Below are positions 3,589 through 55,270 of a stretch of 64,000 nucleotides of DNA, piece after piece (position 1 is the stretch's first letter; each line of letters begins with the position of its first letter). The notes beneath the pieces were generated by a model. It had not been told where the DNA came from, did no database searches, and saw only the letters and a program-made list of their open reading frames with translations. Source of the stretch: Gemmatimonadota bacterium. GTDB taxonomy: Bacteria > Gemmatimonadota > Gemmatimonadetes > Gemmatimonadales > GWC2-71-9. The DNA lies in contig QHTZ01000078.1 of NCBI GenBank assembly GCA_003221005.1, positions 1-64,000 of the forward strand, in the 5' to 3' direction. Both the position numbers and the translations under genes were made by a program.

Positions 3589-4829
3589 AGCACCTCCGCC
3601 ATCGCTGCCGTCACCAGCAGCGCGCGCAGCACTCCCAACGGCCCGTCCGAGTTCTCGTACCACTCCGTCGTGAGGTGGGCGTCGCCGGCGCGGCCCCCCG
3701 CACCCAGGGCGATAGCGGGCACGCCAAGAGCGATCGCGACGTTGGCGTCGGTGGAGGCGGCGGCGAGCTCGGCGTCGCGGCCCAGCGCGCGGTTGGCGGC
3801 GAGGGCGACCTGGACGAGCGGGTGGGTGCGGGGTGTGGTCCCGGACGGGCGGTCGCCCACGAGCTGAACCTCGAGCCTGAGGCGCGGCGTCCCCGTCGTG
3901 CGGCGCCGGTTCTCGTCGTCCGCCGCCCGGTCGAGCGCCGCCCGCACCGTCACGTCGAGCTGCGCAAGCGCCTTCGGGTCCTCGCTGCGCAGGTCGAGGT
4001 CGAGCCATGCCTCCTGCGGAATCGAGTTCAGGCCCGTCCCGCCCCCCAGGCGCACGACCGCGCACGTGGTGCGGGGCTCCGCAGCGACCGGGAGGTCGGC
4101 GAGGAGCGCGGCCGCCCGCCCCACGGCGTTCGCGGGGTTGGCGACGCCGAACGCGGCCCAGGAGTGCCCCCCCGGTCCCCGGAAGGTGACGTGGTAGCGG
4201 CGCGAGCCCAGGGCGCGGTGCACGATGCGCTCGAGCCCCGCGCCGTCGAGCGCGATGAAGGCGGCGGGGACGAAAGGTAGGGGCACGGCATGCCGTGCCC
4301 CTACGTCCTTCTTGCCATCGAACAGGTATTTCGCGCCGCGCAGGTCGCCCGAGCCCTCCTCGCCCACCGTCGCGGCGAACAGGATGGGGCGGGCCGTCGC
4401 CACGCGAGTTCGCACCAGCGCTTCGGCGACGGCGATGAGGGCGGCGAGCCCGCGCGCGTTGTCCGAGATCCCGGGGCCCTCGAGGCGCTCACCGCGGCGC
4501 TCCACCCCCACCTGCACATCCGGCCCGAAGACGGTATCCAAGTGGGCGGCCAGTACCACCGGCGCCGGCCCGTTCCCGGTCCCGCGTCCCTCCTCCCCCC
4601 GGAACCACCCGCGCACGTTCCCGACCTCGTCGATGAGGACGTCGCGCAGGCCCACTTCCCGGAACAACTCCGCTGTGCGAGCGGCACGCTGCGTCTCGGC
4701 ACCGGTGGGAGCCGGGACCGCCGACAGCGCGGCCTGGCGGGCGAGGGTCACCTCGTCGGTGCGCTCGATGTGATGGCGCGCGGCGCGCACGCGCTCGTGT
4801 CCCAGCAGCCTCGCGATCAGCTCGTTCAT
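3585..4829 (-). CDS. M20/M25/M40-family metallohydrolase
   Basis: AHLDTV, DNARG, GEEG, GGHSW, STDAN and AH motifs; start taken at MNELIARLL. Confidence 0.88.
   Translation of the reverse strand: MNELIARLLGHERVRAARHHIERTDEVTLARQAALSAVPAPTGAETQRAARTAELFREVGLRDVLIDEVGNVRGWFRGEEGRGTGNGPAPVVLAAHLDTVFGPDVQVGVERRGERLEGPGISDNARGLAALIAVAEALVRTRVATARPILFAATVGEEGSGDLRGAKYLFDGKKDVGARHAVPLPFVPAAFIALDGAGLERIVHRALGSRRYHVTFRGPGGHSWAAFGVANPANAVGRAAALLADLPVAAEPRTTCAVVRLGGGTGLNSIPQEAWLDLDLRSEDPKALAQLDVTVRAALDRAADDENRRRTTGTPRLRLEVQLVGDRPSGTTPRTHPLVQVALAANRALGRDAELAAASTDANVAIALGVPAIALGAGGRAGDAHLTTEWYENSDGPLGVLRALLVTAAMAEVL
4277..4304. repeat. Perfect 28-bp GTAG-type REP-like palindrome inside the M20 gene
   Basis: GTAGGGGCACGGCA-TGCCGTGCCCCTAC is self-complementary; encodes VGARHAVPL. 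Confidence 0.8.
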
Positions 4830-4847
4830 CGTTACGGAGAAGGTCGC

Positions 4848-4876
4848 TTGACCCCCGCGCGGCGGCAAGCGACACT
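4848..4876 (+). promoter_or_regulatory. Putative sigma70 promoter, leaderless-type, for the LeuA-family gene
   Basis: TTGACC-17 nt-GACACT, ATG 6 nt downstream, no SD. Confidence 0.5.
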
Positions 4877-4882
4877 AGTCCA

Positions 4883-6115: not shown

Positions 6116-7725
6116 GGCAATTCCGGGAGGTCGAGCGCTCGTATTTCGATCTCCGTTGGCATCTCGACCCCGTCGCCGCGACACAGGCTGGCGTGACCGC
6201 GCACGACGACCGCTTCGGGCGTTTCAGCCCCGCCGCCCTCGCGCCGCACCTCGCGGCGCTCAAGTCTATCTCGGCCGCCCTCGAGGAAGCCGCGGTTCCC
6301 AGCCTCGACGATGAGATCGACCGCACGGCGCTCCTGAACGACATCCGCGTGACGGTGCGACGCCTGGAGCGTGAGCGCCCCCAGGCGAAGAACCCGGGCT
6401 TCTGGCTGTCGCACCTCCTCGGGGGTCTGCATTTCCTGATGCTGCGCCGCGACCGCACGGCGGCGGAGCAAGCACGCGCCGTGGCCAGTAGGCTCGAGGA
6501 CCTGCCGGCGTTTCTGGAGGACGCGCGCACCACGCTCGTCGAGCCGGTGCGGGTGTTCGTCGCGACCGCGTTGCAGGTGATCGAAGGGGGGCTCGACCTC
6601 GTGAAACAGGTCGCGGCGACCGTGGCGGAGCGAGCTCCCGAGCAGGCGGAGCGCCTCGCCGCCGCGACCGACGCGGCCGTAGCCGCCCTCGGCGCTTTCA
6701 CCCGGGACCTGTGGCGGTGGCTCGAGACGGCCTCAGACCACTTCGCCCTGGGAGAGGACGACTTCAACTTCCGGCTCCATTACGAGCACGTGCTGCGCGA
6801 CACGGCGCCCGAGCTGTGGCGCTACGGGCTCCATCTCAAGGAGGAGGTCGAAGCAGACCTCGCGGCGCGCGCCCGGCGGCTGGACGGCCGCGGCCGATGG
6901 CACGATGTCGTGGACCGGTTGCGGGCGGAGCACCCCACGGAAGAGACGCTGGTGGATGCATACGCGCGCGAGATGACGCGCGCGCGCGACTTCGTGGGGC
7001 AGCGCGGTCTCGCGGCCCTGCCCGCGGCGCCGCTCGACGTGGTGCAGACGCCCGCTTTCATGCGGCCCGTGATTCCCTTCGCCGCGTACGACAGCCCGGG
7101 AGCATATTCGACCGACCGCACCGGGTGGTTCTACGTGACCGTCCCGGACGCGCGGCTTCCCGCCGAGCAGCGGGAGCGCATCCTGCGGGACCATTGCCGC
7201 TTCGAGCTTGCGGCCACGGCGCTGCACGAGGGCTACCCCGGCCACCACCTCCAGCTGGTCCACGCCCAGGCCCAGCCCTCACACGTCCGCAAGAACATCT
7301 GGACGCCTCTCACCGTCGAGGGATGGGCGCTGTACTGCGAGGACATGATGGGGGAGGAAGGGTTCTATGCGTCCGAGGAGGAGCTCCTATTCCAGCGCGT
7401 CCACCTGCTGTGGCGCGCGATGCGGATCCTGCTCGACGTAGGTCTGCATACCCGGGGGATGACGTTCCACCAGGCGGTGACGCAGCTCGTCGAGCAGCTG
7501 CACGTGGACCCCGCCAACGCCGAGGCCGAAGTGCGCCGCTACTGCGCGGAGCCCGCCTACCCGCTGTGCTACGCGGTCGGCCGGCGCGAGCTGCTCAAGC
7601 TGCGTGACGACTACCGGGCGTCCAGCGGCGGCGACTTTACGCTGCGGCGCTTCCACGACGCGATTCTCCAGTACGGCGGCCTCCCCGTCACGCTGATTCG
7701 CTGGGGCCTGGGCCTGAATGAATAG
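6106..7725 (+). CDS. DUF885-family protein (putative metallopeptidase)
   Basis: HEGYPGHH, EGWALYCE, DVGLH and FHDAIL motifs; ATG 6106 overlaps the upstream gene. Confidence 0.9.
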   Translation: MAVGQFREVERSYFDLRWHLDPVAATQAGVTAHDDRFGRFSPAALAPHLAALKSISAALEEAAVPSLDDEIDRTALLNDIRVTVRRLERERPQAKNPGFWLSHLLGGLHFLMLRRDRTAAEQARAVASRLEDLPAFLEDARTTLVEPVRVFVATALQVIEGGLDLVKQVAATVAERAPEQAERLAAATDAAVAALGAFTRDLWRWLETASDHFALGEDDFNFRLHYEHVLRDTAPELWRYGLHLKEEVEADLAARARRLDGRGRWHDVVDRLRAEHPTEETLVDAYAREMTRARDFVGQRGLAALPAAPLDVVQTPAFMRPVIPFAAYDSPGAYSTDRTGWFYVTVPDARLPAEQRERILRDHCRFELAATALHEGYPGHHLQLVHAQAQPSHVRKNIWTPLTVEGWALYCEDMMGEEGFYASEEELLFQRVHLLWRAMRILLDVGLHTRGMTFHQAVTQLVEQLHVDPANAEAEVRRYCAEPAYPLCYAVGRRELLKLRDDYRASSGGDFTLRRFHDAILQYGGLPVTLIRWGLGLNE

Positions 7726-8923
7726 CGCGGCAGCGCCCGCACGCCCCGGGCTGCCGCGCGCCGTCAAGTTGTTCGGGTTGGTCTCCCTCCTGAACGATTT
7801 TGCGAGTGAGATGATCTACCCCTTGCTTCCCGCCTTCGTGACCGGGGTGCTCGGCGCGGGAGCCGGGGCGCTAGGCGCGCTCGACGGGGCGGCGGAGTTC
7901 GCGGCGGCGGGCGTGAAGTGGGGCGCGGGCCGCCTCGCCGACCGGCCGGCGCGCCGGGGCCGCTTGGTGGTGCTGGGCTACGCGATGGCGGTGCTCGTTC
8001 GCCCAGTCATCTCGCTCGCGGGGGCGGCCTGGCAGGTGATCGGACTCCGGGTCGTGGACCGGCTCGGCAAGGGGCTCCGCACGCCGCCGCGCGACGCCCT
8101 GATCGCGGACGCGACGCCCGCCGCGCTCCGGGGCCGCGCGTTCGGGCTGCAGCGCGGGCTCGACCACGCAGGCGCGGTGCTCGGGCCGCTGGTGGCCTGG
8201 TGGCTGCTGGCGCACCGCGGTGCGAACCTGCGGACGGTGATAGCGGCGAGCCTGGTGCCGGGAATCGTAGTGCTGGTGCTGGCCATCTGGGCGGTAAGGG
8301 ACGGTAAGGGGCGGTACGGGGCGGGAGGCGCTGGTCCGCAGGGCGGCCCCTTACCGCCTCCTACCGCCTCTGCCCGCCCCTTACCGCCCGCACTCCTCGC
8401 CATCTCCTTCTTCTATCTCCTCCGCATGCCCGAGACCCTCATCATCCTGCGGTCGCAGCAGCTCGGCGTCGCGGTGGCGGTGGTGCCGCTGTTGTGGGCC
8501 GCGGTGCACGTCGTGAAATCCTCCACGAGCTTCGCGGGTGGTGGGTGGAGCGATCGCTTCGGCCCCGAGCGGACGATGTGGATCGGGTGGGTGTGCTACG
8601 CCGCGCTTGCGGCGGCGATGGCCGCCGCGTCCACCGCGCTCCAGGCGTGGCTGTTGTTTCTGGCGTTGGGCGTCGTGGCGGGACTCACTGAGAGCCCGGA
8701 ACGGGCTCTCGTCGCGCAGTTGGCCGGCGACCGACAGGGGAGCGGCTTCGGCGTGTATCACGGCGTGACGGGACTGGCCGCGCTCGCGGGCGGTGTGGCC
8801 TTGGGTTTGGTGTTTCAGGCGGGCGGCGGCCCGCGTGCCTTCATCGTGAGCGCCGCGCTCGGCGGCTTGCTGGCGGTGATGAGCGCGGCTTCCTACCTGC
8901 GTCGCACAGGGGAGGCCATGTGA
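7718..8923 (+). CDS. MFS transporter
   Basis: 12 hydrophobic segments, SEMIYPLLP and DRLGKGLRTPPRDALIAD motifs. Confidence 0.9.
   Translation: MNSAAAPARPGLPRAVKLFGLVSLLNDFASEMIYPLLPAFVTGVLGAGAGALGALDGAAEFAAAGVKWGAGRLADRPARRGRLVVLGYAMAVLVRPVISLAGAAWQVIGLRVVDRLGKGLRTPPRDALIADATPAALRGRAFGLQRGLDHAGAVLGPLVAWWLLAHRGANLRTVIAASLVPGIVVLVLAIWAVRDGKGRYGAGGAGPQGGPLPPPTASARPLPPALLAISFFYLLRMPETLIILRSQQLGVAVAVVPLLWAAVHVVKSSTSFAGGGWSDRFGPERTMWIGWVCYAALAAAMAAASTALQAWLLFLALGVVAGLTESPERALVAQLAGDRQGSGFGVYHGVTGLAALAGGVALGLVFQAGGGPRAFIVSAALGGLLAVMSAASYLRRTGEAM
8291..8387. repeat. 10-bp tandem units followed by inverted tandem units, inside the MFS central loop
   Basis: GCGGTAAGGG-like x4 (8291-8330), then CCCTTACCGC-like x4 (8348-8387). 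Confidence 0.8.
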
Positions 8924-9142
8924 GAGTCGCTGCGGCGCCGCCAGTAGTCGTCGTCAGATTCGGCTTCGAGGTCGAACTCGACCAGGGCGTAAACCATGAC
9001 AGCCAGGCTCCACACGAGCAGCACGACCGCCCAGGCTGACGAATGTTGCGGCCTTGCGGGGCGATGCGGTAAGGTATGCTCGGCGTCGGGCCGTTATCAA
9101 TTCTCCGCGATAGGGTATATCCTTTCTCTCGACCTTAGTCGT

Positions 9143-9228: not shown

Positions 9229-9235
9229 GGACGGG

Positions 9236-12323: not shown

Positions 12324-12525
12324 TTAACAGCAGCGCGCGACCTGGCCCTTTCGTTCGAAGCAGTCGGCTAGGTATTCGCGCTCGCTCAGCGGAGGACGCC
12401 CCGCCCGCCGACAGTGCTCGACGTAAGCCGCGTAATCGGGCGCGCCGATGATGCGCCGCAGCACGCGCGTGACGCGGGTGGGGAGGGGCTGGGCCCCTTC
12501 CCCCTTCCCTCTTCCCCCTTCCCGT

Positions 12526-12542
<17 letters not shown>
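12324..12542 (-). CDS. YbdD/YjiX-family small protein associated with CstA
   Basis: GAPDYAAYVEH...PLSEREY...RCC C-terminus; directly downstream of cstA; start uncertain. Confidence 0.85.
12496..12523. repeat. Four 7-bp tandem units (GGGAAGG on the coding strand) at the cstA/yjiX junction
   Basis: CCTTCCC CCTTCCC TCTTCCC CCTTCCC. Confidence 0.75.
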
Positions 12543-14562
<2,020 letters not shown>

Positions 14563-14569
14563 GCGGGCT

Positions 14570-14598
14570 AAGTTACGGTGCGCCTTGCCGCTGTTCAA
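14570..14598 (-). promoter_or_regulatory. Putative leaderless-type sigma70 promoter of cstA
   Basis: Minus strand TTGAAC-17 nt-TAACTT, ATG 7 nt downstream. Confidence 0.55.
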
Positions 14599-18704: not shown

Positions 18705-19892
18705 ATGGCACTGAGATTCCAGGGCGTCGACTTCTACGACGCCGATGGCCTGCTAACCGAAGAGGAGCGCGCCGTCCGCGACACGGTGCGCGCCTGGGTG
18801 GACGACAACGTCATCCCGGTGATCGGCGAGCACTACGTCGCGGGCAAGTTCCCCACCCACCTCGTTCCCCAAATGGCCGAGCTGGGGCTGTTCGGGGCGA
18901 ACCTCCCCGAGGAGTTCGGCTGCGCGGGCCTCAATAACGTCGCCTACGGGCTGATCATGCAGGAGCTGGAGCGCGGCGATTCCGGGGTGCGCTCGTTCGC
19001 ATCGGTGCAGGGAGCGCTCGTGATGTATCCCATCTACGAATTCGGCAGCGACGAGCAGAAGCGGCGCTGGCTGCCCGAGCTGGCGAGCGGGCGGCGCATC
19101 GGCTGCTTCGGGCTGACCGAGCCCGACTACGGCTCGAACCCCGGTGGGATGATCACGGTCGCGAAGGAGACGAAGGAGGGGTGGGTACTGAACGGGGCCA
19201 AGATGTGGATCACGAACGGCTCGACCGCGGACGTCGCGATCGTGTGGGCCAAGACGGCACGGTTGGACGATCCGGGCTCGATCCGCGGGTTCATCGTCCC
19301 CACCGACGCCAAGGGCTTCGCGGCGAAGGACCAGCAGGGGAAGCTCTCCTTGCGCGCGAGCGACACGAGCGAGCTCGTGCTTCAGGACGTGTGCGTCCCC
19401 AAGGAGGCGCTGCTGCCGAAGTCGGCCGGGCTCAAGTCGCCCCTCATGTGTCTCACGGCCGCGCGCTACGGCATCGCCTGGGGGGCGGTCGGATCCGCGA
19501 TGGCATGCTACGACGAAGCGGTGCGTTACGCCAAGGCGCGGGTCGTGTTCGACCGGCCCATCGGTGGCTTCCAGTTGCAGCAGGCCCGGCTCGTGGAGAT
19601 GCTGACGGAGATCACCAAGGCGCAGCTGCTGTGCCTCCAGCTGGGCCGGCTCAAGGACCAGGGGAAGATGTCGCCGCAGCAGGTCTCGCTCGCCAAGCGC
19701 AACAACGTGAGCATGGCGACCGATGTCGCCCGCGAGAGCCGGCGCCTGCTCGGGGCCAGCGGCATCCTCGCCGAGTATCAGGCGATGCGACATCTCGCGA
19801 ACCTCGAGTCCGTGTACACCTACGAAGGGACACACGACATCCACACGCTCATCCTCGGGCAGGAGATCACGGGGCTGAGCGCATTCAACTGA
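18705..19892 (+). CDS. Acyl-CoA dehydrogenase (glutaryl-CoA dehydrogenase-like)
   Basis: ELERGDSG, FGLTEPDYGS, NGAKMWITNG and TYEGTHDIH motifs. Confidence 0.92.
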   Translation: MALRFQGVDFYDADGLLTEEERAVRDTVRAWVDDNVIPVIGEHYVAGKFPTHLVPQMAELGLFGANLPEEFGCAGLNNVAYGLIMQELERGDSGVRSFASVQGALVMYPIYEFGSDEQKRRWLPELASGRRIGCFGLTEPDYGSNPGGMITVAKETKEGWVLNGAKMWITNGSTADVAIVWAKTARLDDPGSIRGFIVPTDAKGFAAKDQQGKLSLRASDTSELVLQDVCVPKEALLPKSAGLKSPLMCLTAARYGIAWGAVGSAMACYDEAVRYAKARVVFDRPIGGFQLQQARLVEMLTEITKAQLLCLQLGRLKDQGKMSPQQVSLAKRNNVSMATDVARESRRLLGASGILAEYQAMRHLANLESVYTYEGTHDIHTLILGQEITGLSAFN

Positions 19893-19991
19893 ATGCGGAG
19901 TGCGGAGTGCGGAATGCGGAATGTAAGTGTAAGCTTCTTGAGGCGAACGACTCTTCACTGAAATTCCGCGTTCCGCATTCCGCGTTCCGCG
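19892..19991. repeat. Heptamer tandem plus inverted heptamer tandem intergenic element
   Basis: A(A/G)TGCGG x4 (19892-19919), lower-GC spacer, TTCCGC(G/A) x4 (19964-19991). Confidence 0.85.
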
Positions 19992-20001
19992 TTTGCTCGC
20001 G

Positions 20002-20754
20002 ATGAAGATCGCCGTCTGCATCAAGCGCGTCGCCGACAGTGAGACCCGCGTGAAGATCGCCGCGGACGGGAAGGCGCTCGACGAGGCCGGCGTGAAGTTC
20101 GTCCTCAACCCCTACGACGAGTTCGCGGTCGAAGAAGCCCTGCGGCGCAAGGAGCAGGCCGGTAGCGGCGAGGTCGTCGTCGTGGCGCTCGGGCCGGCGG
20201 CGGCCCAGGAGACGATCCGCGCCGCGCTCGCGATGGGAGTGGACCGTGGCGTCCTGCTCCAGGTGGATCGCATCCCCGCCGACGGCCTGGTCGTCGCGCA
20301 GGCGCTGGCGGCGGAGCTCAAGGATGGCGGCTACGACCTCATCCTCTGCGGCAAGATGGCGATCGACGACTACAACCATCAGGTGGGCCCGATGGTGGCC
20401 GAGCTGCTCGGCCTGCCGTGCGTCACGTCCATCGCGCACCTCGAGCTCCAGGGGAACACGGGGGTCGCCGAGCGCGAGGTTGAGGGTGGGATCGAGGTGT
20501 GCGAGTTCCCCCTGCCGGCGGTCCTGACGACAGACAAGGGGCTCAACGAGCCACGCTACCCGGCGCTCAAGGGCATCATGGCCGCCAAGAAGAAGCCGTT
20601 GGACATCAAGCCCACGGCGTTGGCCGTGGGCGGGCTCGAGGTGCTCGCGATGACGCCACCACCCGATCGCAAAGATGGACGCATCGTCGGTGAAGGTGTG
20701 GCGGCGATCCCCGAGCTGCTGCGCCTGCTGCGCGAGGAAGCAAAGGTCCTGTGA
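20002..20754 (+). CDS. etfB: Electron transfer flavoprotein beta subunit
   Basis: KIAVCIKRV, NPYDEFAVEEAL and NEPRYPALKGIMAAKKK motifs. Confidence 0.95.
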   Translation: MKIAVCIKRVADSETRVKIAADGKALDEAGVKFVLNPYDEFAVEEALRRKEQAGSGEVVVVALGPAAAQETIRAALAMGVDRGVLLQVDRIPADGLVVAQALAAELKDGGYDLILCGKMAIDDYNHQVGPMVAELLGLPCVTSIAHLELQGNTGVAEREVEGGIEVCEFPLPAVLTTDKGLNEPRYPALKGIMAAKKKPLDIKPTALAVGGLEVLAMTPPPDRKDGRIVGEGVAAIPELLRLLREEAKVL

Positions 20755-21731
20755 CCGCCGTGCTCGCCGTGCTCGAGCAGCGCGACGGCGCCCTGCGCAA
20801 GGTGTCGCACGAGGTAGTCACGGGAGCGCGACGCCTCGCGGACGCGGGGAGTGGGACGGTGGAGGCGCTGGTCCTCGGCGGGGGCACGGTGAGCGGCGCG
20901 GACCAGCTCGGCCGCTTCGGGGCGGACAGGGTGACCACGGCCACGCATGCGGCCCTCGGGCGCTACACCCCCGAGGGATACACGCGGGTCGTGGTGGAAC
21001 GGGTGCGTGCGCGGCAGTACGACGCGGTCGTGTTCCCAGCGAGCGCGACCGGGAGAGACCTGGCGCCCCGGGTCGCCGCCCGGCTCGGCGTCCCCCTTGC
21101 GGCGGACGTCACGGACCTCGGGATCGAGGGGGGCGCGATTTGGGCCACGCGGCCGGTGTACGCCGGCAAGGCGCTGCTGAAGGTAAAGCTCCTCGCCCGG
21201 CCGGCACTGCTGTCGCTGCGGCCCAATGTGTTCACCCCGGTTGAGCGTCCCCGCGCGGCCGCGGCGGAGACCGCGAAAGTGGACGTGCCGGAGCGCGGCG
21301 GGCGGGTTGTGGTGCGCGAGATCAAGGCTGCGGCGGCTGGAGCACTCGACGTGGCCGAAGCGCCGATCGTCGTGTCGGGGGGGCGGGGGCTCAAGGAGCC
21401 CGCGAACTTCAGGCTGCTGGAGGAGCTGGCGCGCGCGTTCGGCGGCAAGGCGGCGGTGGGGGCCTCGCGCGCCGTGGTGGACGCGGGCTGGCGCCCACAC
21501 GCGGATCAGGTGGGCCAGACAGGGAAGACCGTGAGCCCCACCCTGTACGTCGCGGTCGGCATCTCGGGGGCGATCCAGCACCTCGCGGGGATGCGCACGT
21601 CCAAGGTCATCGTCGCGATCAATCGCGACAAGGACGCGCCCATCTTCAAGGTCGCGGACTACGGGATCGTGGGAGACCTGTTCGAGATCGTGCCGAGGCT
21701 TACCGAGGAGATCAGGAAACTGCATGCCTAG
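20751..21731 (+). CDS. etfA: Electron transfer flavoprotein alpha subunit
   Basis: [16 protein letters not shown] and [12 protein letters not shown] motifs. Confidence 0.95.
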
Positions 21732-21757
21732 GGACCGGGGACGAGGGACGAGGGAAG
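21730..21757. repeat. Four 7-bp tandem units between etfA and ETF-QO
   Basis: AGGGACC GGGGACG AGGGACG AGGGAAG. Confidence 0.7.
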
Positions 21758-41570: not shown

Positions 41571-42362
41571 ATGCCGCGCTGGCTGAAGTGGTGTGGCTTG
41601 TGGACGCTGCTGGGGGTCGTGTCGAGCCTCCCCGCCGGGCCGCACCGCTGGGGGCAGGCACTCGCCGCGAGCCTGCCGGCCTGGTATCTGTGGGGACTGC
41701 TCTCACCGGTCGTGGCGTGGCTCGCGCGGCGCTTTCGGGTGGACCGAGCCAGCTTCGGCCGCTACTTCTTCATCCACCTCGGGGCGAGCCTCGATCTCGC
41801 GCTGCTGCATCTCGTTGCCGCGGTAGGGGTGCAGGACCTGCTGCACGCGGCGGCGGGCGAGCCGTATCCCTTCGCGCAGAAGCTGGTGGACACCTTTACG
41901 GTCCTCTATCACTGGAATGTCCTCACCTATTGGGCGATCCTCGCGGTGGTGCACGCGCACGACTACCATCGCGACCTCGAGGCGCGTCGCGCGCTGTCCG
42001 CGCCGCTCGAGCCGCGGTTTGCCGAGCGCGGGCCGGCCCATCGTCTCCTCGTCGAAGACGGGGGGCGCAGCGTGTTCGTGCGCACCGAGGAGGTCGACTG
42101 GGTCGAAGCGGCGAAGAACTACGTGCGCCTCCACGTCGGTGAGCGCACGCACCTCGTACGCACGACCCTCACGGCGCTCGAGCGCCGGCTCGACCCGCAG
42201 CGATTTCGCCGCGTCAGTCGTTCGGCGCTCGTGAACCTGGACCGGGTGCGGGAGCTGCAACCCTGGTTCCACGGAGACGCGATCGTCGTGCTGCACACGG
42301 GCGCCCAGGTCACCCTCAGTCGGCGCTACCGCCACAACCTGCTCGAGCCGGCCGCGCCCTAA
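41571..42362 (+). CDS. Membrane-anchored LytTR-domain regulator
   Basis: About 4 TM helices, then VDWVEAAKNYVRLH...FRRVSRSALVN...LSRRY. Confidence 0.85.
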   Translation: MPRWLKWCGLWTLLGVVSSLPAGPHRWGQALAASLPAWYLWGLLSPVVAWLARRFRVDRASFGRYFFIHLGASLDLALLHLVAAVGVQDLLHAAAGEPYPFAQKLVDTFTVLYHWNVLTYWAILAVVHAHDYHRDLEARRALSAPLEPRFAERGPAHRLLVEDGGRSVFVRTEEVDWVEAAKNYVRLHVGERTHLVRTTLTALERRLDPQRFRRVSRSALVNLDRVRELQPWFHGDAIVVLHTGAQVTLSRRYRHNLLEPAAP

Positions 42363-42438
42363 CCCGTTCGTCCCGCCCCGAGTCCCGCTCGTCCCGCTCG
42401 CGTTCGCTCGCAGGGGTTGCGGCGCGAAATTCGGAGAC

Positions 42439-43938
42439 GTGTCCCTCTTCGCTACCAAGCCCATCGCCGCGCTCCGCGCCGAGGCGGAGACGATGTCCGA
42501 GCGGTCGCTGCGCCGCACGCTCGGACCGCTGCACCTCACGGCGCTCGGCGTGGGCGCGATTATCGGCGCTGGGATCTTCGTTCTCACTGGGGTCGCGGCC
42601 GCCCTGTACGCGGGGCCGGCGGTGCCCGTCTCCATGGTGGTCGCCGGGGTCGCCTGCGGATTCGCGGGGCTGTGCTACGCCGAGATGGCGAGCGCGGTCC
42701 CGGTGGCGGGGAGTGCCTACACGTACGCGTACGCCACGCTGGGAGAGATCGTCGCGTGGATCATCGGCTGGGATCTGATCCTCGAGTACGCCATGGGTGC
42801 GGCGACCGTGGGTGTCGGTTGGTCCGCCACGTTCGTGAGCTTCCTCAGGCTGGTCGGTATCGACGTTCCCGGTTCACTCGCGAGCGCTCCCTTGGCGTTC
42901 TGCACCGCCACCCAGGCGGCCCGCGGGGTGGGGGGCTGCGCCACGGCAGGCTGGCACGCCACGGGGGCGCTGCTCAACCTCCCCGCGGTCTTCATTATCC
43001 TCGCCATCACCGCGATCCTCGTCATCGGCATCCGCGAGTCGGCGCGGTTCAACAGCCTGATCGTGATCGTGAAGACCGCGGTGCTGCTCGTGTTCGTGGT
43101 CGCGGGCTACCGGTACGTGCAGGCCGCGAACTGGCAGCCGTTCATTCCGCCCAATACCGGGGTGTTCGGCGAGTTCGGCTGGTCGGGAGTGCTCCGGGGC
43201 TCGGGGCTGATCTTTTTCGCGTACATCGGCTTCGACGCGGTGAGCACGGCCGCCCAGGAGGCGCGTAATCCCCAGAAGGACATGCCGGTGGGCATCCTCG
43301 CGTCGCTCGGCATTTGCACGCTCCTGTATTGCCTGGTGTCCCTCGTGCTGACCGGCATGATCTCGTACAAGGAGCTGAACGTGCCGTCCCCCGTGATCAT
43401 GGTGGTCGAGCGCGTGCCACAGCTCGCCTGGTTCCGGCCGGTGATAACGCTCGGCGCGGTGCTGGGCCTCGGCTCGACGATCCTCGTGATGTTGCTGGGC
43501 CAATCGCGCGTCTTCTATGCGATGTCCCGCGACGGCCTGCTCGGCGGCTGGGCGGGGAGGGTGCATCCGCGATTTCGGACGCCCTACCTGTCGACGATCT
43601 ACACCGGGATCGCGGTCGCGGCGTTCACCGGCCTGTTCCCGATCCAGATTCTCGGCCAGCTGGTGAACATCGGCACCCTGCTCGCGTTCGTGCTGGTGTG
43701 CGCCGGCGTGTGGATCCTGCGGCACACGCGACCCGATCTCGAGCGACCATTTCGCGCGCCCCTCGTGCCGCTCGTTCCCATCCTCGGCATCCTGTCGTGT
43801 CTCGGTCTCATGCTGACGCTCCCCTTGGACACATGGATCCGCCTGCTCGTGTGGCTCGTGATCGGGTTCGCGATCTACTTCGCGTACGGGCGGAAGCACA
43901 GCTTCCTCACTGCCAAAGATGTCGAGGAGAGGCGTTGA
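42439..43938 (+). CDS. APC-family amino acid permease, copy 2
   Basis: Same motifs as copy 1; clear paralog. Confidence 0.93.
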   Translation: MSLFATKPIAALRAEAETMSERSLRRTLGPLHLTALGVGAIIGAGIFVLTGVAAALYAGPAVPVSMVVAGVACGFAGLCYAEMASAVPVAGSAYTYAYATLGEIVAWIIGWDLILEYAMGAATVGVGWSATFVSFLRLVGIDVPGSLASAPLAFCTATQAARGVGGCATAGWHATGALLNLPAVFIILAITAILVIGIRESARFNSLIVIVKTAVLLVFVVAGYRYVQAANWQPFIPPNTGVFGEFGWSGVLRGSGLIFFAYIGFDAVSTAAQEARNPQKDMPVGILASLGICTLLYCLVSLVLTGMISYKELNVPSPVIMVVERVPQLAWFRPVITLGAVLGLGSTILVMLLGQSRVFYAMSRDGLLGGWAGRVHPRFRTPYLSTIYTGIAVAAFTGLFPIQILGQLVNIGTLLAFVLVCAGVWILRHTRPDLERPFRAPLVPLVPILGILSCLGLMLTLPLDTWIRLLVWLVIGFAIYFAYGRKHSFLTAKDVEERR

Positions 43939-44025
43939 AGAGAAACGTCGAGGGTGAGGCGTAGCGAGCGACGTATTCTCTCAACGCTTCTTCTTGACGG
44001 TTTTCCTCGACGCCTTTCCTTGACG
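43920..44025. repeat. 13-bp tandem plus inverted tandem element spanning the permease stop
   Basis: CGTCGAGGAGAGG-like x3, then CCTTTCCTTGACG-like x4. Confidence 0.75.
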
Positions 44026-44036
44026 TAGTTTTATGC

Positions 44037-46567: not shown

Positions 46568-47662
46568 GTGGCCGCTTCCAACACACTCCAGGCGCAGGTC
46601 GAGCGCGCCCTCGCCAAGCTCCCGAACCCCCGCCTCGCCAAGGACGTCGTCTCGGCCGGGATGGTGAAGGACCTCGCCGTGGATGGCGGGGCGGTCACGT
46701 TCACGTTTCTCCTCGCCCGCGATGACCCCGGGACGCTGGTGCGCGAGGCGCGCAAGACGGTGAAGGCCGTGCCGGGCGTGACCGCCGTGACGATCAACGT
46801 GAAGGACTCGGGAGGAGGGACGGGGGAGGGGGGACGAGTCGCCGCGGCGACGGCCGCGGCCCGTGGCGGCGTGCCGCCCCCACCCACGCCCATCGAGCAA
46901 CCCAATCTCGGTGCGGCCCTCGCGATCTCGTCCGGCAAGGGCGGGGTCGGGAAGTCCACCGTTTCCGCCAACCTCGCCGCCGCCCTGGCGCGCGACGGCC
47001 ACCGCGTCGGACTGATGGACGCCGACATCTACGGCCCCAACATCCCCCGGATGATGGGGGTGGGGGGAGGCCGGAAGCCGGAAGTTCACGGCGGCAGGAT
47101 CCAGCCGCTCGAGGGACACGGCGTCAAGCTGATGTCGCTCGGCTTCCTGGTCGAGCGCGACGCGCCCGCCATCTGGCGGGGTCCGATCATCATGAAGGTC
47201 ATCCAGCAGTTCCTGCGGGAGGTGGCGTGGGGCGAGCTGGACTACTTCCTCATCGACCTCCCGCCCGGCACGGGAGACGCCCAGCTGTCCCTGGCGCAAT
47301 CGATCACGCTCCGGGGTGCCATCATCGTCACGACGCCGCAGGAGATGGCGGTCGGCGACAGCCTGCGCGGCGCGAAGATGTTCGAGCGCGTGGGCGTGCC
47401 CGTGGTCGGCGTGGTCGAGAACATGAGTTACTACATCTGCCCGCATTGCGGCGAGCGCACCGAGATCTTTCTCACGGGCGGTGGTGAGCGGCTTGCGCGC
47501 GAGCTCGACGTGCCGCTGCTCGGCCAGGTGCCCCTGCAGGCGCGCATGGCGGACTTCGCGGACGCCGGCAAGCCGATTGTGCTGGCCGAGCCGTCGTCTC
47601 CCGCCGGCGTGGCGCTCGCGGAGATCGCCGCGCGGTTGAGCCAGCGGCTCGCCGCGCGCTGA
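46568..47662 (+). CDS. mrp: Mrp/ApbC (NBP35-family) Fe-S carrier ATPase
   Basis: GKGGVGKS, DADIYGP, DLPPGTGD, ENMS and CPHC motifs; TTGACC-18-TACATT promoter 7 nt upstream. Confidence 0.93.
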   Translation: MAASNTLQAQVERALAKLPNPRLAKDVVSAGMVKDLAVDGGAVTFTFLLARDDPGTLVREARKTVKAVPGVTAVTINVKDSGGGTGEGGRVAAATAAARGGVPPPPTPIEQPNLGAALAISSGKGGVGKSTVSANLAAALARDGHRVGLMDADIYGPNIPRMMGVGGGRKPEVHGGRIQPLEGHGVKLMSLGFLVERDAPAIWRGPIIMKVIQQFLREVAWGELDYFLIDLPPGTGDAQLSLAQSITLRGAIIVTTPQEMAVGDSLRGAKMFERVGVPVVGVVENMSYYICPHCGERTEIFLTGGGERLARELDVPLLGQVPLQARMADFADAGKPIVLAEPSSPAGVALAEIAARLSQRLAAR

Positions 47663-47664
47663 CC

Positions 47665-49754: not shown

Positions 49755-49776
49755 GGCGGCAGGGGCGGCACACCAC

Positions 49777-51078: not shown

Positions 51079-51124
51079 TGCGGAGCTCCGTCAGGCGATT
51101 GGAGAAGGCCCCGCAATGTAGTGG

Positions 51125-51370
51125 CTACTGCTTGAAGCCGCCGGAGGGTGTGGGGATCCGAACCTTCGCCATCACGCGCTCGACAAATCCGAACTCGGGG
51201 CTGAAGCGCTGGAGCTGCGCGAGCTCGACGAACAGCTTGCGCTCCCGCTCCGCCGTCGCGAGGCACGCAGGACACTGCGACAGATGCAGCGCGCGGGCCG
51301 CGGGAAGCAGGCCCTGGGCCCACAGCTCGACTTCGTCGGGGGTGAGGTGCTGAAGATCGGTGTCGCTCAT
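51125..51370 (-). CDS. Soluble zinc-binding (zf-HC2/ZAS) anti-sigma factor
   Basis: HLSQCPAC = HxxxCxxC; follows the ECF sigma; AGGAG SD. Confidence 0.8.
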   Translation of the reverse strand: MSDTDLQHLTPDEVELWAQGLLPAARALHLSQCPACLATAERERKLFVELAQLQRFSPEFGFVERVMAKVRIPTPSGGFKQ

Positions 51371-51404
51371 TTTCCTCTCCTACGGCACGCGGGAAAACCG
51401 GGTT

Positions 51405-52016
51405 TCAGACCCGCCGGTCCTCGAGGTAGCCCCGCAATTCGTTGCGCGCCCGATGGATATACGTCTTCACCGTGCCCAGCGGCAAGTCCAGCATCTGGGC
51501 GATCTCCTCGTACGCGTACCCCTCGACGTGGCGCAACAGGATGCACGCGCGGTACTCGGGCCGGAGGCGGCCGATGGCGCGGTCGATGGCGCCACCGAGC
51601 TCTCGCGCTTCCACTTCCTGCAGCGGCGTCTCGCCGTGGTCGCTGAGCTGCAGAGCGCTCGCGGCGCGCGCATTGGGGGTCATGGCGTCGGGGGCGCCGT
51701 CCAGGGACATCGTATCGATGCTGCGCCTGCGGAGGTGATCGATCGCCGCGTTGTTCGCCACCTTGAAGATCCAGGACGAAAACTTGAACTCGGGACGATA
51801 CGACTTGATGCCGTTCAGGACCTTGATGAAAGTCTCCTGGGCCAGGTCTTCCGCGAGGGCGCGGTCGCGCACCATGCGGTAGAGCAGCGAAAACACGGGC
51901 CGTTCATAGCGGCGCACCAGCTCGCGGAAGGCCGCCTCGTGGCCCTGCTTCGCGCGCGCGGCGAGCTCCTGGTCGCTGGCGCCGGTCGCGTTGAACGGCC
52001 TATCTTTCGCGCCTAT
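51405..52016 (-). CDS. ECF RNA polymerase sigma factor (start probably non-canonical ATA)
   Basis: SDQELAARAKQG.EAAFRELVRRY, AEDLAQETF, YEEIA..LDLPLGTVKT. Confidence 0.9.
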   Translation of the reverse strand: MGAKDRPFNATGASDQELAARAKQGHEAAFRELVRRYERPVFSLLYRMVRDRALAEDLAQETFIKVLNGIKSYRPEFKFSSWIFKVANNAAIDHLRRRSIDTMSLDGAPDAMTPNARAASALQLSDHGETPLQEVEARELGGAIDRAIGRLRPEYRACILLRHVEGYAYEEIAQMLDLPLGTVKTYIHRARNELRGYLEDRRV

Positions 52017-52770
52017 GACGCCGTCTCCTGCGCTGGACGTGGCCGTGGCGGGCGGACAAGAACGACAAGGCGGGAGGAGGGGCGAGTCGAAGCGCTCCTA
52101 TGTGCGGAGCATGTTCACCGCCATCGCGCCGCGCTACGACTTTCTCAATCATCTCCTGAGCCTCAACGTGGATCGCCGCTGGCGCCGCACAGCGGTGGCG
52201 CGGCTCGGCTGGGAGGCGAGACCGGGCGGCGTGTACCTCGACCTGTGCGCCGGCACGCTGGACCTCGCGGCTACGCTGGCCCGCGCGCCCGGCTTCACGG
52301 GGACGGTGATCGGCGCGGACTTCGTGCTGCCGATGCTCCTGCGCGGCCGGGGCAAGGCGGTACGCGCCCGGCCGGTCGGGGCCGATGCGCTCACGCTGCC
52401 GTTCGCGGATGCGCGATTTGACGGCGCCATGTGCGCGTTCGGTGTGCGCAACCTCGCCGACCTGGACGCAGGTCTCGGGGAAGCGGCGCGGGTGCTCAAG
52501 CCGGGGGCACGCTTCGTGGTGCTCGAGTTCGCCACCCCGCGCCGCGCGCCGCTGCGCGCCCTCTACCTCTTCTATTTCCGGCGCCTGCTCCCCGCCATCG
52601 GCCGCGCGGTGTCGAAACATAGGGACGCCTATACCTACCTGCCAGAGTCGGTACTCGAGTTCCCCGAGCCGGCCGCGCTCGCGCGCCGGATCGAGGCGGC
52701 GGGCTTCAGCGACGTGCGCTTCGAGCTGCTTTCCGGCGGGATCTGCGCCGTCCATCATGGCGCTCGATAA
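52015..52770 (+). CDS. ubiE: Demethylmenaquinone methyltransferase (UbiE/MenG)
   Basis: MFTAIAPRYD, DLCAGT, FGVRN and AYTYLPES motifs; TATCTT 8 nt before the ATG. Confidence 0.9.
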   Translation: MTPSPALDVAVAGGQERQGGRRGESKRSYVRSMFTAIAPRYDFLNHLLSLNVDRRWRRTAVARLGWEARPGGVYLDLCAGTLDLAATLARAPGFTGTVIGADFVLPMLLRGRGKAVRARPVGADALTLPFADARFDGAMCAFGVRNLADLDAGLGEAARVLKPGARFVVLEFATPRRAPLRALYLFYFRRLLPAIGRAVSKHRDAYTYLPESVLEFPEPAALARRIEAAGFSDVRFELLSGGICAVHHGAR

Positions 52771-54235
52771 CCTGCGCGCCTTTCTCGGCGCGATCGACAC
52801 GGCCGGCGCCCTCGTCCGCGTGGACCATCCGGTGTCGGTGAATCGCGAGATGACGGAAATCGCGGACCGCTGCATGAAATCGCCGGGCGGCGGCCCGGCG
52901 CTCCTGTTCGAGCACCCGACGCTCGTCGGCGGCGGCCGCTCGCGCCAACCGGTGGCGGTCAACCTGTTTGGCTCCGAGCGCCGCATGGCGCTGGCGCTGG
53001 GCGTCGACTGCCTGGACGAGATCGGCGAACGGATCGCGGCGCTCCTGAACCTCAAGGTGCCGGATACGCTGCTCGGCAAGCTCGCCATGCTGCCGCAGCT
53101 CGCGGAGGTCGCCAAGTTCCCGCCCAAGGCCATCGGGGGGCGCGCTCCCTCTCAGAAGACGGTGCTCCAGGGGGCGGAGGTGAACCTCGCGGAGCTCCCG
53201 ATTCCTATCTGCTGGCCCGAAGACGGCGGGCCGTACATCACGCTGGCGGGCGTGATCACACGCGACCCCAAGAGCGGCGTCAGGAACGTGGGCATGTACC
53301 GCGTGCAGGTGATCGGCAAGAACGAAGTCGCGATGCACTGGCAGCGGCACAAGGTGGGCGCGGCGCACTGGCGCGAGCTCGCGGCACGGGGGGAGACGAT
53401 GCCGGTGGCGATCGCCCTGGGCGGTGATCCCGCGAGCATCTACGCCGCGTCGGCGCCGCTGCCGCCCTCGATCGACGAGTTCCTGTTCGCCGGCTTCCTG
53501 CGCCGCGAGCCGGTGCGCCTGGCGAAGGCCGTCACCTGCGATCTCGAGGTCCCGGCGGAGGCGGAGCTCGTGCTCGAAGGCTACATCGACCCGCGCGAGC
53601 CGCTCGTGCTCGAAGGCCCGTTCGGCGACCACACCGGGTTCTATTCGCTCGCGGACCATTACCCAAAGGTTCACATCACGGCGGTGACGCTGCGCGACGA
53701 TCCCATCTATCCGCACACCATCGTGGGGCGCCCGCCGATGGAGGATTATTACCTGGGACATGCTACGGAGCGCATCTTCCTGCCGCTCCTCAAGCTCACG
53801 CTTCCCGAGATCGTCGACATCCACATGCCGGCCGAGGGGATCTTCCACAACCTGGTATTCGTGAGCATCGACAAGCAGTACCCGGGGCAGGCGTACAAGG
53901 TGATGAACGGGTTGTGGGGGCAGGGACTGATGTCGCTCGCGAAAGTGATCATCGTAGTGGACAAGGATGTGAACGTGCGCGACCCGAAGGAGGCGTGGTG
54001 GGTGGCGCTCAACCACATCGACCCGGAGCGCGACGTGCGGTTCACGATGGGCCCGATCGACGTGCTCGATCACTCGAGCCGCGGCTTCACGTTCGGGTCG
54101 AAGATGGGGATCGACGCGACGCGCAAGTGGAAGGAAGAGGGATTCGCGCGCGAATGGCCGAACAAGATCGTGATGGACGAGGCAACGAAGCGGCGGGTGG
54201 ACGAGATGTGGAAGGAGCTGGGGATTGAGCTCTAA
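52757..54235 (+). CDS. ubiD: UbiD-family decarboxylase (menaquinone futalosine-type, MqnL-like)
   Basis: NVGMYR, EGPFGDHTG and KMGIDAT motifs. Confidence 0.92.
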   Translation: MALDNLRAFLGAIDTAGALVRVDHPVSVNREMTEIADRCMKSPGGGPALLFEHPTLVGGGRSRQPVAVNLFGSERRMALALGVDCLDEIGERIAALLNLKVPDTLLGKLAMLPQLAEVAKFPPKAIGGRAPSQKTVLQGAEVNLAELPIPICWPEDGGPYITLAGVITRDPKSGVRNVGMYRVQVIGKNEVAMHWQRHKVGAAHWRELAARGETMPVAIALGGDPASIYAASAPLPPSIDEFLFAGFLRREPVRLAKAVTCDLEVPAEAELVLEGYIDPREPLVLEGPFGDHTGFYSLADHYPKVHITAVTLRDDPIYPHTIVGRPPMEDYYLGHATERIFLPLLKLTLPEIVDIHMPAEGIFHNLVFVSIDKQYPGQAYKVMNGLWGQGLMSLAKVIIVVDKDVNVRDPKEAWWVALNHIDPERDVRFTMGPIDVLDHSSRGFTFGSKMGIDATRKWKEEGFAREWPNKIVMDEATKRRVDEMWKELGIEL

Positions 54236-55121
54236 CCGCGAGCTCCAGACGTTCGCAGGCGACAGCCTGCTGGTGCGGTACGCGAACTTCGTCAGGCTCC
54301 CGCATACAGTCTTCGCGCTCCCGTTCGCCCTGCTGGGTGTGATCGTGGCGTCGCGTGAGCAGGCGGTGACGCCACGGGTGCTGGGCTTGGCGGTGCTCGC
54401 GTTCACGTGCGCGCGCTTCGTGGCGCTCGGCTTCAACCGCATCGCCGACCGCGAGCTCGACGCCCGCAATCCGCGCACCCGTAATCGCGAGCTGCCGAGC
54501 GGCCGGCTGACGCTCGCGCAGGCGTGGGTCGCCGTGGCGGTCGCCGCCGCTCTGTTCCTGTGGGCGTCCTCGGCGCTCAACCCGCTGTGCTTTGCGCTCG
54601 CGCCCGTGGCCCTCGTCTTCATTTCGGCATACAGCTACTCCAAGCGCTTCACCCACTGGTCGCACCTGTGGCTCGGCCTCGCCGACGGGATCGCGACGCC
54701 GGCGGGTTACCTCGCGGTAACGGGGCGGTGGAGCGACCCGTGGTGGCTGCTGCCGGCGGGGGCGCTGGCGGTGACGTTCTGGGTTGGAGGTTTCGACGTG
54801 TTCTACGCTCTCCAGGACGAGGACTTCGATCGCGCGGAGCGCCTCAAGTCGCTCGTCGTGCGCGTGGGACCGGCGCGCGGCATCGTCGCCGCCAAGCTGC
54901 TGCACGGTCTCACGCTCCTCGCCCTTGTGGCGTTCGGCGCGGGGGCGGGCCTCGGCGCCGCCTACTATGCCGGGGTGGTGATCGGTGCGGCCGTCATCGC
55001 GTACGAGCACCGCCTCGTGAAGCCGGGAGACCTGTCGCGCCTAGATGCCGCCTTCTTCGGCGCGAACGGACTGGTGAGCATCGTCGTGTTTCTGGGCGCG
55101 CTGGTTGATCGGATCGTATGA
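54225..55121 (+). CDS. ubiA: UbiA-like prenyltransferase (MqnP-like)
   Basis: HTVFALPF, NRIADRELDARNPRT, YSYSKRFT and YALQD motifs. Confidence 0.92.
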   Translation: MSSNRELQTFAGDSLLVRYANFVRLPHTVFALPFALLGVIVASREQAVTPRVLGLAVLAFTCARFVALGFNRIADRELDARNPRTRNRELPSGRLTLAQAWVAVAVAAALFLWASSALNPLCFALAPVALVFISAYSYSKRFTHWSHLWLGLADGIATPAGYLAVTGRWSDPWWLLPAGALAVTFWVGGFDVFYALQDEDFDRAERLKSLVVRVGPARGIVAAKLLHGLTLLALVAFGAGAGLGAAYYAGVVIGAAVIAYEHRLVKPGDLSRLDAAFFGANGLVSIVVFLGALVDRIV

Positions 55122-55270
55122 AGCGCGGGATGCGAGATGCGGGAGGCGAGATGCGTAAGCCGCGCGGCCCCCGGAACAAGCGCATCTCGCATCCCCCATC
55201 TCGCATCCCGCCGCCCCATCCGCCGGCGCACCCGAAGCGCTCCCCCACACCGAATAGGAGAGGGCGCTGA
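55118..55270 (+). other. Repeat-derived 50-aa mini-ORF bridging ubiA and ubiX
   Basis: ATG overlaps the ubiA TGA; open to TGA 55268-55270, which overlaps the CTG at 55267. Confidence 0.4.
55125..55211. repeat. Heptamer tandem plus inverted tandem element
   Basis: GCG(G/A)GAT-like x4 (55125-55152), CGCATC(T/C)-like x4 (55181-55208). Confidence 0.85.

Follow-up and report, generated by a model that had tools for sequence, protein, structure and literature searches.

Tandem-unit hairpins in a Gemmatimonadota genome: possible gene-less relatives of S23p (PF05635) cassettes

What are hairpins whose arms are each built of about four tandem copies of a short unit, when the unit differs from one hairpin to the next? 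Four such elements lie in the 64,000-nt window studied here, positions 1 to 64,000 of contig C102 in the 2.79-Mb, 141-contig assembly of a Gemmatimonadota bacterium (the own genome, G000, set beside relatives numbered from G001). On balance, and with modest confidence, we read the window hairpins as gene-less relatives of a cassette that resembles the S23p intervening sequence (IVS), and as members of a DNA-level class of selfish repeats. In their full form, hairpins of this kind enclose a gene of the S23p family PF05635; they therefore look like selfish DNA and not like gene-control signals.

The arms of the four elements, as called by Tandem Repeats Finder (TRF), and their spacers lie at the following positions.
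8289–8324: element 1, 5′ arm, 3.6 copies of the 10-nt unit GGGCGGTAAG, in frame within the MFS transporter open reading frame (ORF) 7718–8923 (TRF, Pfam)
8346–8389: element 1, 3′ arm, 4.4 copies of the complementary units (TRF)
19891–19923: element 2, 5′ arm, 4.7 copies of the 7-nt unit GAATGCG/GAGTGCG, beginning within the acd stop codon
19924–19963: element 2, spacer, the first ~19 nt matching the 3′ end of a TonB-dependent receptor gene (sequence comparison)
19964–19993: element 2, 3′ arm, 4.3 copies of TTCCGCG/TTCCGCA, ending 8 nt upstream of the etfB ATG at 20002
43920–44027: element 3, both arms, ~13-nt units of the GTCGAGGAGAGGC type, spacer nearly nil
55125–55155: element 4, 5′ arm, 4.4 copies of GCGGGAT/GCGAGAT, 3 nt past the ubiA stop
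55156–55180: element 4, spacer, with a core CCCCGGAA..CAA shared with G002, G003 and G004, the last of which has no arms
55181–55211: element 4, 3′ arm, 4.4 copies of CGCATCT/CGCATCC

Repeat calling and folding confirm the four two-armed elements at the places where a first-pass annotation of this DNA had put them. As single-stranded DNA, elements 1 to 4 fold with −40.5, −33.7, −25.5 and −40.3 kcal/mol (z scores of −4.4, −7.3, −3.5 and −7.7 against dinucleotide shuffles). The reading frame is kept, as had been claimed, across 8289–8389 in the MFS ORF; G001 carries the 8-mer GGGCGGTC in the same transporter loop, and both this 8-mer and the 10-mer of element 1 contain GGGCGGT. Element 3, of which TRF calls the 3′ half alone, as period 26, sits between the stop of an amino-acid permease gene (43938) and the start of a DHH/DHHA1 (NrnA-like) gene (44037), a junction that in G002 holds a plain hairpin without arrays. 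Pfam identified the neighboring genes as encoding acyl-CoA dehydrogenase, EtfB, EtfA, the MFS transporter, the amino-acid permease, the DHH/DHHA1 NrnA-like protein, UbiA and a UbiX-type flavoprotein. An Rfam search of the whole window returned zero family matches. No PF05635 gene lies inside the window, in line with the earlier remark that it contains no mobilizing enzyme.

The whole assembly was then compared with three third-order Markov simulations, an array being defined as a TRF call of period at least 5 with at least 2.8 copies. Arrays numbered 944, against 255–275 in the simulations. Inverted pairings of same-unit arrays within 200 nt numbered 82, against 1, 1 and 0, so the genome-wide scan that had been proposed places these pairs above chance; direct pairings within the same distance came to 3, against 0, 1 and 0. 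Period 7 was the commonest (100 paired and 165 unpaired arrays), with 41 and 107 at period 8 and 7 and 39 at period 10. Arms contained 4.11 ± 0.57 units at period 7 (n = 111 arms), which bears out the original estimate of about four, 3.68 ± 0.51 at period 8 (n = 44) and 4.01 ± 0.40 at period 10 (n = 8); copy numbers fell in the modal class of 4.0–4.5 for 63 of 165 arms. Stems averaged 27.6 paired positions, 90% of them Watson–Crick, and spacers measured 10–30 nt in 45 of 91 elements, with a maximum of 216 nt.

The G-rich arm precedes the C-rich arm in 72 elements and follows it in 7, the latter mostly with G=C-balanced units, plus the CCAATGT family. The G-first order that had been described for the transcribed strand thus stands as an order, but it says nothing about transcription because an inverted repeat reads alike on both strands; the G-arm-then-C-arm polarity is an intrinsic feature, unaffected by inversion. 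The units, thought at first to be unrelated, recur across the genome as AATGCGG, GGGACGN, GGGATGC/GAGATGC, GGGAAAC, GAACGCG, GACGGAAG, GGGCGGTAAG, GGCGGTCN, AGACGTC, TAGACGGG and others. These make up more than 12 families of 7, 8, 10 and ~13 nt in one genome, and unit types blend into each other within single arrays. The contrast that had been drawn with repeat families of conserved sequence, such as repetitive extragenic palindromic (REP) elements and bacterial interspersed mosaic elements (BIMEs) or the short tandemly repeated repetitive (STRR) sequences, was therefore overstated, since within each genome the units come in recurring families.

Within families and between arms the arrays are far from independent. 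In the AATGCGG family, nine 5′ arms measure ~31 nt, or four units with an added AAT, and have identical phase, and seven of the nine have the variant unit AATTCGG in common; this shared length, phase and variant point to a copied module and not to free slippage. Among neighboring arrays no more than 250 nt apart, 73 G-then-C pairs were of the same family, five more were so by our own reading (they had been called with another period), and two were truly mixed; neighbors with differing units numbered 7 in C-then-G, 9 in G-G and 5 in C-C orientation. This coupling of same-family arms implies that the arms arise together, or that the second is templated by the first. A common generating process behind many unit sequences, as had been suggested from the window, is supported. 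An autonomous element with distant arms was considered and rejected: PF05635 cassettes aside, same-family orientations are even at 250–8000 nt (GC 21, CG 18, GG 23, CC 24).

Six PF05635 genes, three of them confirmed by Pfam, are present elsewhere in the own genome, and all six lie between inverted arms of tandem units, five with z above 11 and one, on C132, weakly.
C66: arms of GGAACGC
C118: arms of GGGACGN
C135: arms of the 10-mer GGCGGTAAGG, the family of window element 1
C52: arms of a 16-mer based on GGCGGTC
C39: arms of CCAATGT, beside a 5S rRNA end
C132: arms weak

The association extends well beyond this genome. Across the order, inverted flanks with z above 6 occur at 31 of 35 PF05635 loci (one of them supplied by G020, which also provides one row of the PF05635 genome search), mostly as tandem arrays of period 7 or 8. 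A search of other genomes for proteins related to that of C135 left 80 loci, all but one from Gemmatimonadota/Gemmatimonadales metagenome-assembled genomes, and 65 had full flanks; at 61 of these 65 other Gemmatimonadota loci the gene is flanked, with the G-rich arm 5′ in 61 of 61 and with units nearly all on a GGCGGT/GACGGT/GGCGGG core. Clean same-family convergent pairs 250–1000 nt apart with no called gene between them came down to the cassettes on C66, C118 and C135 and an artefact in the C38 tRNA cluster. The C135 protein matches PDB 2GSC (XCC0516 of Xanthomonas campestris, five chains) with an E value of 2e-20.

Comparison of junctions, proposed earlier as a way to find empty and filled alleles, showed cassette sites to be filled, arm-less or empty among relatives. 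The C66 site (C66:3751-4178) is filled in the own genome, G005 and G002, and has neither arms nor gene in G003 and G004. The C118 site is filled in the own genome and G003 and precisely empty in G001, without duplication. At the C66-orthologous site the arms of the G002 cassette consist of AATGCGG units, unit 2 being the variant AATTCGG, and this ties a cassette arm to the gene-less AATGCGG family of the own genome.

Two further features of cassettes were seen. At C39:1-760 the cassette lies immediately 3′ of the 5S rRNA gene, and the stretch made of its right arm and ~20 nt of spacer occurs twice, once on each side of the gene; its family, in which CCAATGT comes first, is the chief departure from the G-first order. 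At loci L231:1474-1872 and L229:1414-1797 the PF05635 ORF extends into the arm, so that repeat units encode a C-terminal tail (e.g. ..VPRSAFRVPR).

Gene and hairpins were also compared across genomes. PF05635 was present in 35 of 41 genomes searched, and the own genome and ten others were scanned for inverted pairs.
Own genome: 6 PF05635 genes, 8.8 inverted pairs per 300 kb
G001: 8 PF05635 hits, 8 pairs in 300 kb
G026: 4 hits, 9 pairs in 300 kb
G013: 13 hits, 4 pairs in 140 kb
G021: 12 hits, 12 pairs in 105 kb
G004 (same genus): 0 hits, 0 pairs in 309 kb, one period-7 array
G011: 0 hits, 0 pairs in 165 kb
G014: 0 hits, 0 pairs in 170 kb
G023: 3 hits, 0 pairs in 300 kb
G027: 5 hits, 0 pairs in 300 kb
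G031: 8 hits, 0 pairs in 140 kb

In the sequence sampled, all five hairpin-rich genomes carry PF05635 and all three PF05635-less genomes lack hairpins. G004, 100% complete by marker genes, has no arms at six comparable window-related junctions, and its ksgA gene retains about one unit at each arm site.

The same gene, ksgA, also shows what lies between gene-less arms. In the own genome (C66:21989-22807) the conserved native enzyme segment 'V.GDAL...W' is bracketed by the arms, each of them a separate in-frame insert of ~33 nt (~11 residues). Aligned orthologues (27, from 30 loci in 40 relatives) showed both arm sites occupied in the own genome, G002, G005, G009, G015, G003 and G016, a decayed 3′ arm in G006, the 5′ array only in G014, and both sites empty in more distant genomes; the metagenome contig L147 has the 5′ arm alone. 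Across relatives and metagenome contigs at least eight unit types occupy these sites (GAATGCG, GAACGCG/GAGCGCG, GGAGTGC, GATTGCG, GGGGATT, CAGGTGT, GGGATGC and GTGCGGC), each time with the same type in both arms, including a compensatory GATTGCG/CGCAATC pair. Each genome's ksgA unit type belongs to a family that is plentiful in that genome, as counts of three-unit arrays illustrate.
(CAGGTGT)x3: G002 1, G003 14, G005 0, G015 0, G016 8
(GGGGATT)x3: G002 0, G003 0, G005 0, G015 2, G016 43
(GGAATGC)x3: G002 34, G003 2, G005 4, G015 12, G016 10

A reversed control pattern, (TTAGGGG)x3, matched 29 times in G003 and not in the other four genomes, a genome-specific unit family of telomere-like appearance.

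Other junctions vary in the same fashion. Between ubiA and ubiX the unit type differs in each of four genomes; one spacer core recurs in the own genome, G002, G003 and G004, in the last without arms, and G005 has only 1 nt between the genes. The acd–etfB junction (window 19893–20001; loci L033–L042) holds a 2.1-kb TonB-dependent receptor gene in G001, G002 and G005, 6 nt in G003 and a plain small hairpin in G004. Among all spacers of at least 15 nt, no similarity was found beyond one 12-nt match. The spacers are native host DNA, and the hairpins are therefore not simple scars or empty sites. The earlier suggestion of a cargo-gene element thus holds in part, in that six PF05635 loci exist elsewhere in the genome; its reading of the hairpins as scars or empty sites fails at ksgA and ubiA–ubiX. 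We also rejected, as a general rule, the idea that arms lengthen prior hairpins, as 12% of 65 spacers have z below −2 compared with 5% of random segments, with medians of −0.14 and −0.05.

From these observations a mechanism can be sketched. The full form would be a cassette of two inverted arms, each of about four tandem units of 7–10 nt with the G-rich strand 5′, around a PF05635 gene. The protein may act in trans on tandem units, plausibly with one subunit per unit, an arrangement that would explain four units and a partial fifth. Its action might keep or spread arms, and arrays deprived of PF05635 would shrink to about one unit. Elements would persist where they are tolerated, at stop and start codons, in the spacers of tRNA operons and in protein loops. 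Whatever installs the arms must yield a fixed polarity, about four units, no target duplication, and native DNA between same-family arms.

Several observations weigh against reading the hairpins as relatives of the cassette. The AATGCGG, GGGATGC/GAGATGC, GGGAAAC, GACGGAAG and AGACGTC families have no cassette in the 94%-complete own assembly. A master-and-miniature relation predicts cassette-derived spacers, and the spacers are native. PF05635 is not sufficient, given G023, G027 and G031, which have the gene and 0 pairs; and cassette arms in G031, G033 and G035 are long and non-tandem. The 11 sampled genomes are interrelated, with the G013 and G021 contigs selected for PF05635 matches. The one site that is precisely empty, that of the C118 cassette in G001, shows no target-site duplication. 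Causality could run in reverse, with the gene lodging in existing hairpins. Finally, the predicted action on the arms would fall to a four-helix bundle, a fold with no known nuclease or polymerase activity.

A more specific proposal, which we hold only tentatively and think rather unlikely, is that S23p is the factor acting in trans in a kind of repeat system not recognized before: a pentamer would read four to five units on the single-stranded G-arm and drive transposase-free writing of the same arm on either side of a piece of host DNA. The Xanthomonas S23p structure is cited as a pentameric toroid, and the function of S23p proteins is given as not known, in the available parts of a study of the Coxiella IVS (PMC4990558).

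Location and base pairing bear on how far the elements might instead be functional RNA stems, whether terminators or insulators, RNase III sites as in rRNA IVSs, or REP-like stabilizers of mRNA 3′ ends; we regard this as quite improbable. Genes were called with our own codon-usage caller (2570 genes, 91% coding). Of 91 elements with period at least 7, 30 lie in co-directional gaps, 10 in convergent and 3 in divergent gaps, and 7 at contig ends. Intergenic copies are usually 0–10 nt from both neighbors and often overlap stop codon bases; divergent gaps hold 3 of 43 intergenic elements although they make up 25% of intergenic length; and in two tRNA operons (C38:41923-43064 and C68:12479-13173) almost every spacer between tRNA genes is taken up by a tandem-unit hairpin, to within a few bases of the tRNA ends. 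All this is as RNA stems would have it, as are RNase III cleavage in the stem of the classical S23p IVS (PMC4990558, in the parts available), a few terminator-like inner spacer hairpins with T-runs, noticed in passing, and the element at 19891, in which five sense-strand pairs are of G.T type and none is of A.C type. Yet the remaining 41 of the 91 elements lie inside called ORFs of housekeeping genes, which does not agree with a strong bias to non-coding DNA (the ksgA and MFS cases were checked by alignment or Pfam). Among elements of known transcription direction, sense-strand stem mismatches are 46 of G.U type and 49 of A.C type (26 and 30 inside ORFs, 20 and 19 between co-directional genes). 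RNA selection would favor G.U, and the near-equality therefore indicates a strand-symmetric constraint, at DNA level or mechanistic. Nor does each element have a functional strand of its own, the overdispersion of mismatch types being absent (74 observed, 72.2 ± 5.6 simulated). Orthologous junctions of congeners are empty or arm-less, the congener G004 has no element in the 309 kb sampled, and the window gave no Rfam match. The RNA-processing or antitermination signal put forward in the first-pass annotation is thus not favored.

The most substantial rival is an origin in replication or repair, through slippage, gene conversion among dispersed arrays, and template switching where short inverted repeats occur, with PF05635 as a passenger that settles in hairpins already present or is tolerated there. 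It would account for single-step unit changes between genomes at one site with the arms co-varying, for family abundances that differ by genome as genome-wide concerted evolution predicts, and for PF05635-positive genomes without hairpins, families without a cassette, and native spacers; the single CAGGTGC word in G004 ksgA, where G003 has an array, could be a seed and not a remnant. We nevertheless judge it unlikely. Slippage predicts broad copy numbers, and about four units of fixed length and phase are seen; template switching predicts both polarities, against 72 and 7 for the hairpins and 61 and 0 for cassettes; and the gene is flanked at 6 of 6 own and 61 of 65 distant loci. The long inverted arms of cassettes in hairpin-poor G031, G033 and G035 likewise indicate that arms belong to the cassette. 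G-quadruplex regulatory repeats of the Xanthomonas/Nostoc type, four units supplying four G-tracts, would suit the four-unit preference, and Xanthomonas arrays form quadruplexes in vitro and occur as 70–75 convergent pairs (Rehm et al. 2015, PMC4692102, in the parts available). A GGG run is present in the units of only 35 of 91 elements, so the quadruplex reading is not general; the other 56 (e.g. GAATGCG, GAACGCG, AGACGTC and GACGGAAG) keep the same four-unit architecture, and a complementary arm would compete with a quadruplex, which leaves this explanation very improbable. We give equally little credence to REP elements and REPINs (paired REPs) moved by a RAYT (a REP-associated Y1 transposase) or to MITEs (miniature transposable elements with inverted repeats) of a DDE transposon. 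Two PF01797 (Y1 transposase, RAYT-like) genes are present outside the window (C27:17898-18239 and C66:6398-6736), and the hairpins are dispersed, palindromic and mostly in extragenic-tolerant places. Both RAYT genes, however, are flanked by their own non-tandem REP/REPIN hairpins of other sequence, a population separate from the tandem-unit hairpins, and more than 12 unit families would each require a specific transposase of their own. No internal sequence is conserved; the dissimilar, native spacers and the empty C118-site allele without target-site duplication count against MITEs. A partner reverse transcriptase like that of diversity-generating retroelements was also sought, and no PF00078 match was found in the own genome (94% complete).

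The relation of hairpins to cassettes, which we prefer, can be set against known systems. Xanthomonas campestris and X. axonopodis GGGAATC arrays, with a preference for four units, are among the nearest, together with the Coxiella IVS: like the elements described here they form inverted pairs in which the G-rich array leads on both strands, adjoin stop and start codons, avoid divergent gaps, and vary in unit number and sequence among related genomes. The parts of Rehm et al. available to us report no function and no mobile-element link, leaving the functional role to be elucidated; the supplementary table places a four-unit GGGAATC array over the start codon of XCC0516, an S23p-family gene, and the main text, as far as available, makes no mention of S23p (PMC4692102). 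Xanthomonas differs in having one unit family, as opposed to more than 12 here, most of them unable to form a canonical quadruplex, and in that its arrays are under-represented in ORFs, whereas 41 of 91 here are in frame by our gene calls.

A terminal stem of 28 bp that RNase III cleaves, an S23p ORF and tandem heptamers that vary among strains characterize the 23S IVS of Coxiella (PMC4990558, in the parts available). With the S23p IVSs of Coxiella, Leptospira and others, the present elements share a selfish hairpin with a stem of ~28 bp formed from terminal inverted repeats, a PF05635 ORF in the loop (at the six loci outside the window, and in no window element) and, as in Coxiella, tandem heptamers beside the ORF whose number varies among strains. 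RNase III cuts classical IVSs, which occupy helix 25 or 45 of 23S rRNA, out of the RNA, whereas the elements in the window are found within protein genes or between them, and elements elsewhere also in tRNA operon spacers and beside rRNA genes; they are mostly gene-less, with loops of host DNA. In four relatives with an assembled copy the 23S rRNA gene measures 2949–2983 nt against a 2925-position model, so those four relatives contain no large IVS (the own 23S is unassembled).

Like the present elements, REPs, BIMEs and REPINs are short palindromes, numerous at gene ends, whose families vary from one genome to another. A REP is, however, a single imperfect palindrome of conserved sequence moved by the Y1 transposase that it flanks. 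Rickettsia palindromic elements are palindromes tolerated in frame in protein genes, each a single insert with its own conserved sequence, unlike two arms around native coding sequence. The STRR heptanucleotide arrays of cyanobacteria are intergenic tandem heptamers abundant in particular lineages. Intergenic tandem heptamers are also formed by the TAACTGA repeats of Beggiatoaceae (PMC4679880, in the parts available). Both are mainly direct arrays in the descriptions seen, unlike the inverted pairs with four units and a PF05635 link found here. Our literature search returned no paper that connects tandem-unit hairpins across a genome with PF05635 cassettes, and none about repeats in Gemmatimonadota.

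The window also contains the eight one-armed sites of the first-pass annotation, of which part stood: four are arrays of at least 2.9 copies and a fifth has 2.1 copies at 42382–42400, but TRF finds none at 4569, 36553 and 52050.
12494–12523: single C-rich array, CCCCTTC, 4.3 copies (TRF), 2 nt from the stop of the minus-strand gene 12526–14598
21730–21755: single G-rich array, AGGGACG, 3.7 copies (TRF), occupying the gap from the etfA stop to the next start (21759)
33339–33375: single C-rich array of a 9-mer, 4.1 copies (TRF), within the called minus-strand ORF 33205–34221
46810–46836: single G-rich array of GGGACGG type, 2.9 copies (TRF), in a variable linker of ORF 46568–47662
36553–36575: degenerate C-rich stretch inside ORF 35552–37099, no array by TRF
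42363–42410: degenerate C-rich array directly 3′ of the LytTR gene stop, called by TRF at 42382–42400 only
4569–4596: degenerate C-rich heptad-like linker in the minus-strand ORF 3585–4868, no array by TRF
52050–52086: G-rich linker near the start of ORF 52015–52770, no clean tandem array and none by TRF, with a shorter stretch in relatives

The G-rich 5′ flank of the array at 12494–12523 may be a decayed partner arm. At the 36553–36575 site G001 has a single (CCGCCTGA)x4 array and G003 a two-armed element with zero spacer, with none in G002, G004 and G005. The linker orthologous to 46810–46836 has no array in G001, G003, G004 and G005, in a comparison without a G002 row. The block of LytTR regulator and amino-acid permease (41571–43938) is at the same place in G002 and absent there from G001, G003, G004 and G005; arrays stand at both of its borders.

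Near RNA genes, CAGGTGT-family hairpins at C3:249280-249348 and 252450-252522 of G001 lie ~50–75 nt before and after the 23S rRNA gene (249423–252400). Arms that seemed to flank a tRNA gene were an artefact, ARAGORN showing two separate elements in adjacent inter-tRNA spacers.

In metagenomes, the closest relative in our scan has 68% protein identity, with nothing nearer; with no strain-level relative, no recent arm gain could be caught. No RNA run was listed as containing the stretch. In four soil runs the Logan contigs end at the arms. A joint from 19893 to 20001 is seen in a single contig of X1 and another of X2, a weak signal that may represent the empty allele of a relative. Across window positions 19442–20095, summed contig depth over element 2 in the soil metagenomes X1, X2, X4 and X5 is 10- to 40-fold above its neighbors, with contig ends at 19891/19892, which indicates that arm units are very abundant in those four soils.

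Practically, the elements break short-read assemblies, add in-frame peptides to essential genes and mark junctions of gene turnover. Tandem heptamer arrays have no accepted function or origin in bacteria, and this genome links them to S23p proteins. G004, a congener without PF05635 and without arrays, is a natural knock-out that makes the puzzle testable, as the question of whether a small ring protein maintains or spreads the repeat arms. If the pentamer reading were true, it would explain the heptamer repeats of Xanthomonas, cyanobacteria and many uncultured phyla, together with the origin of rRNA intervening sequences.

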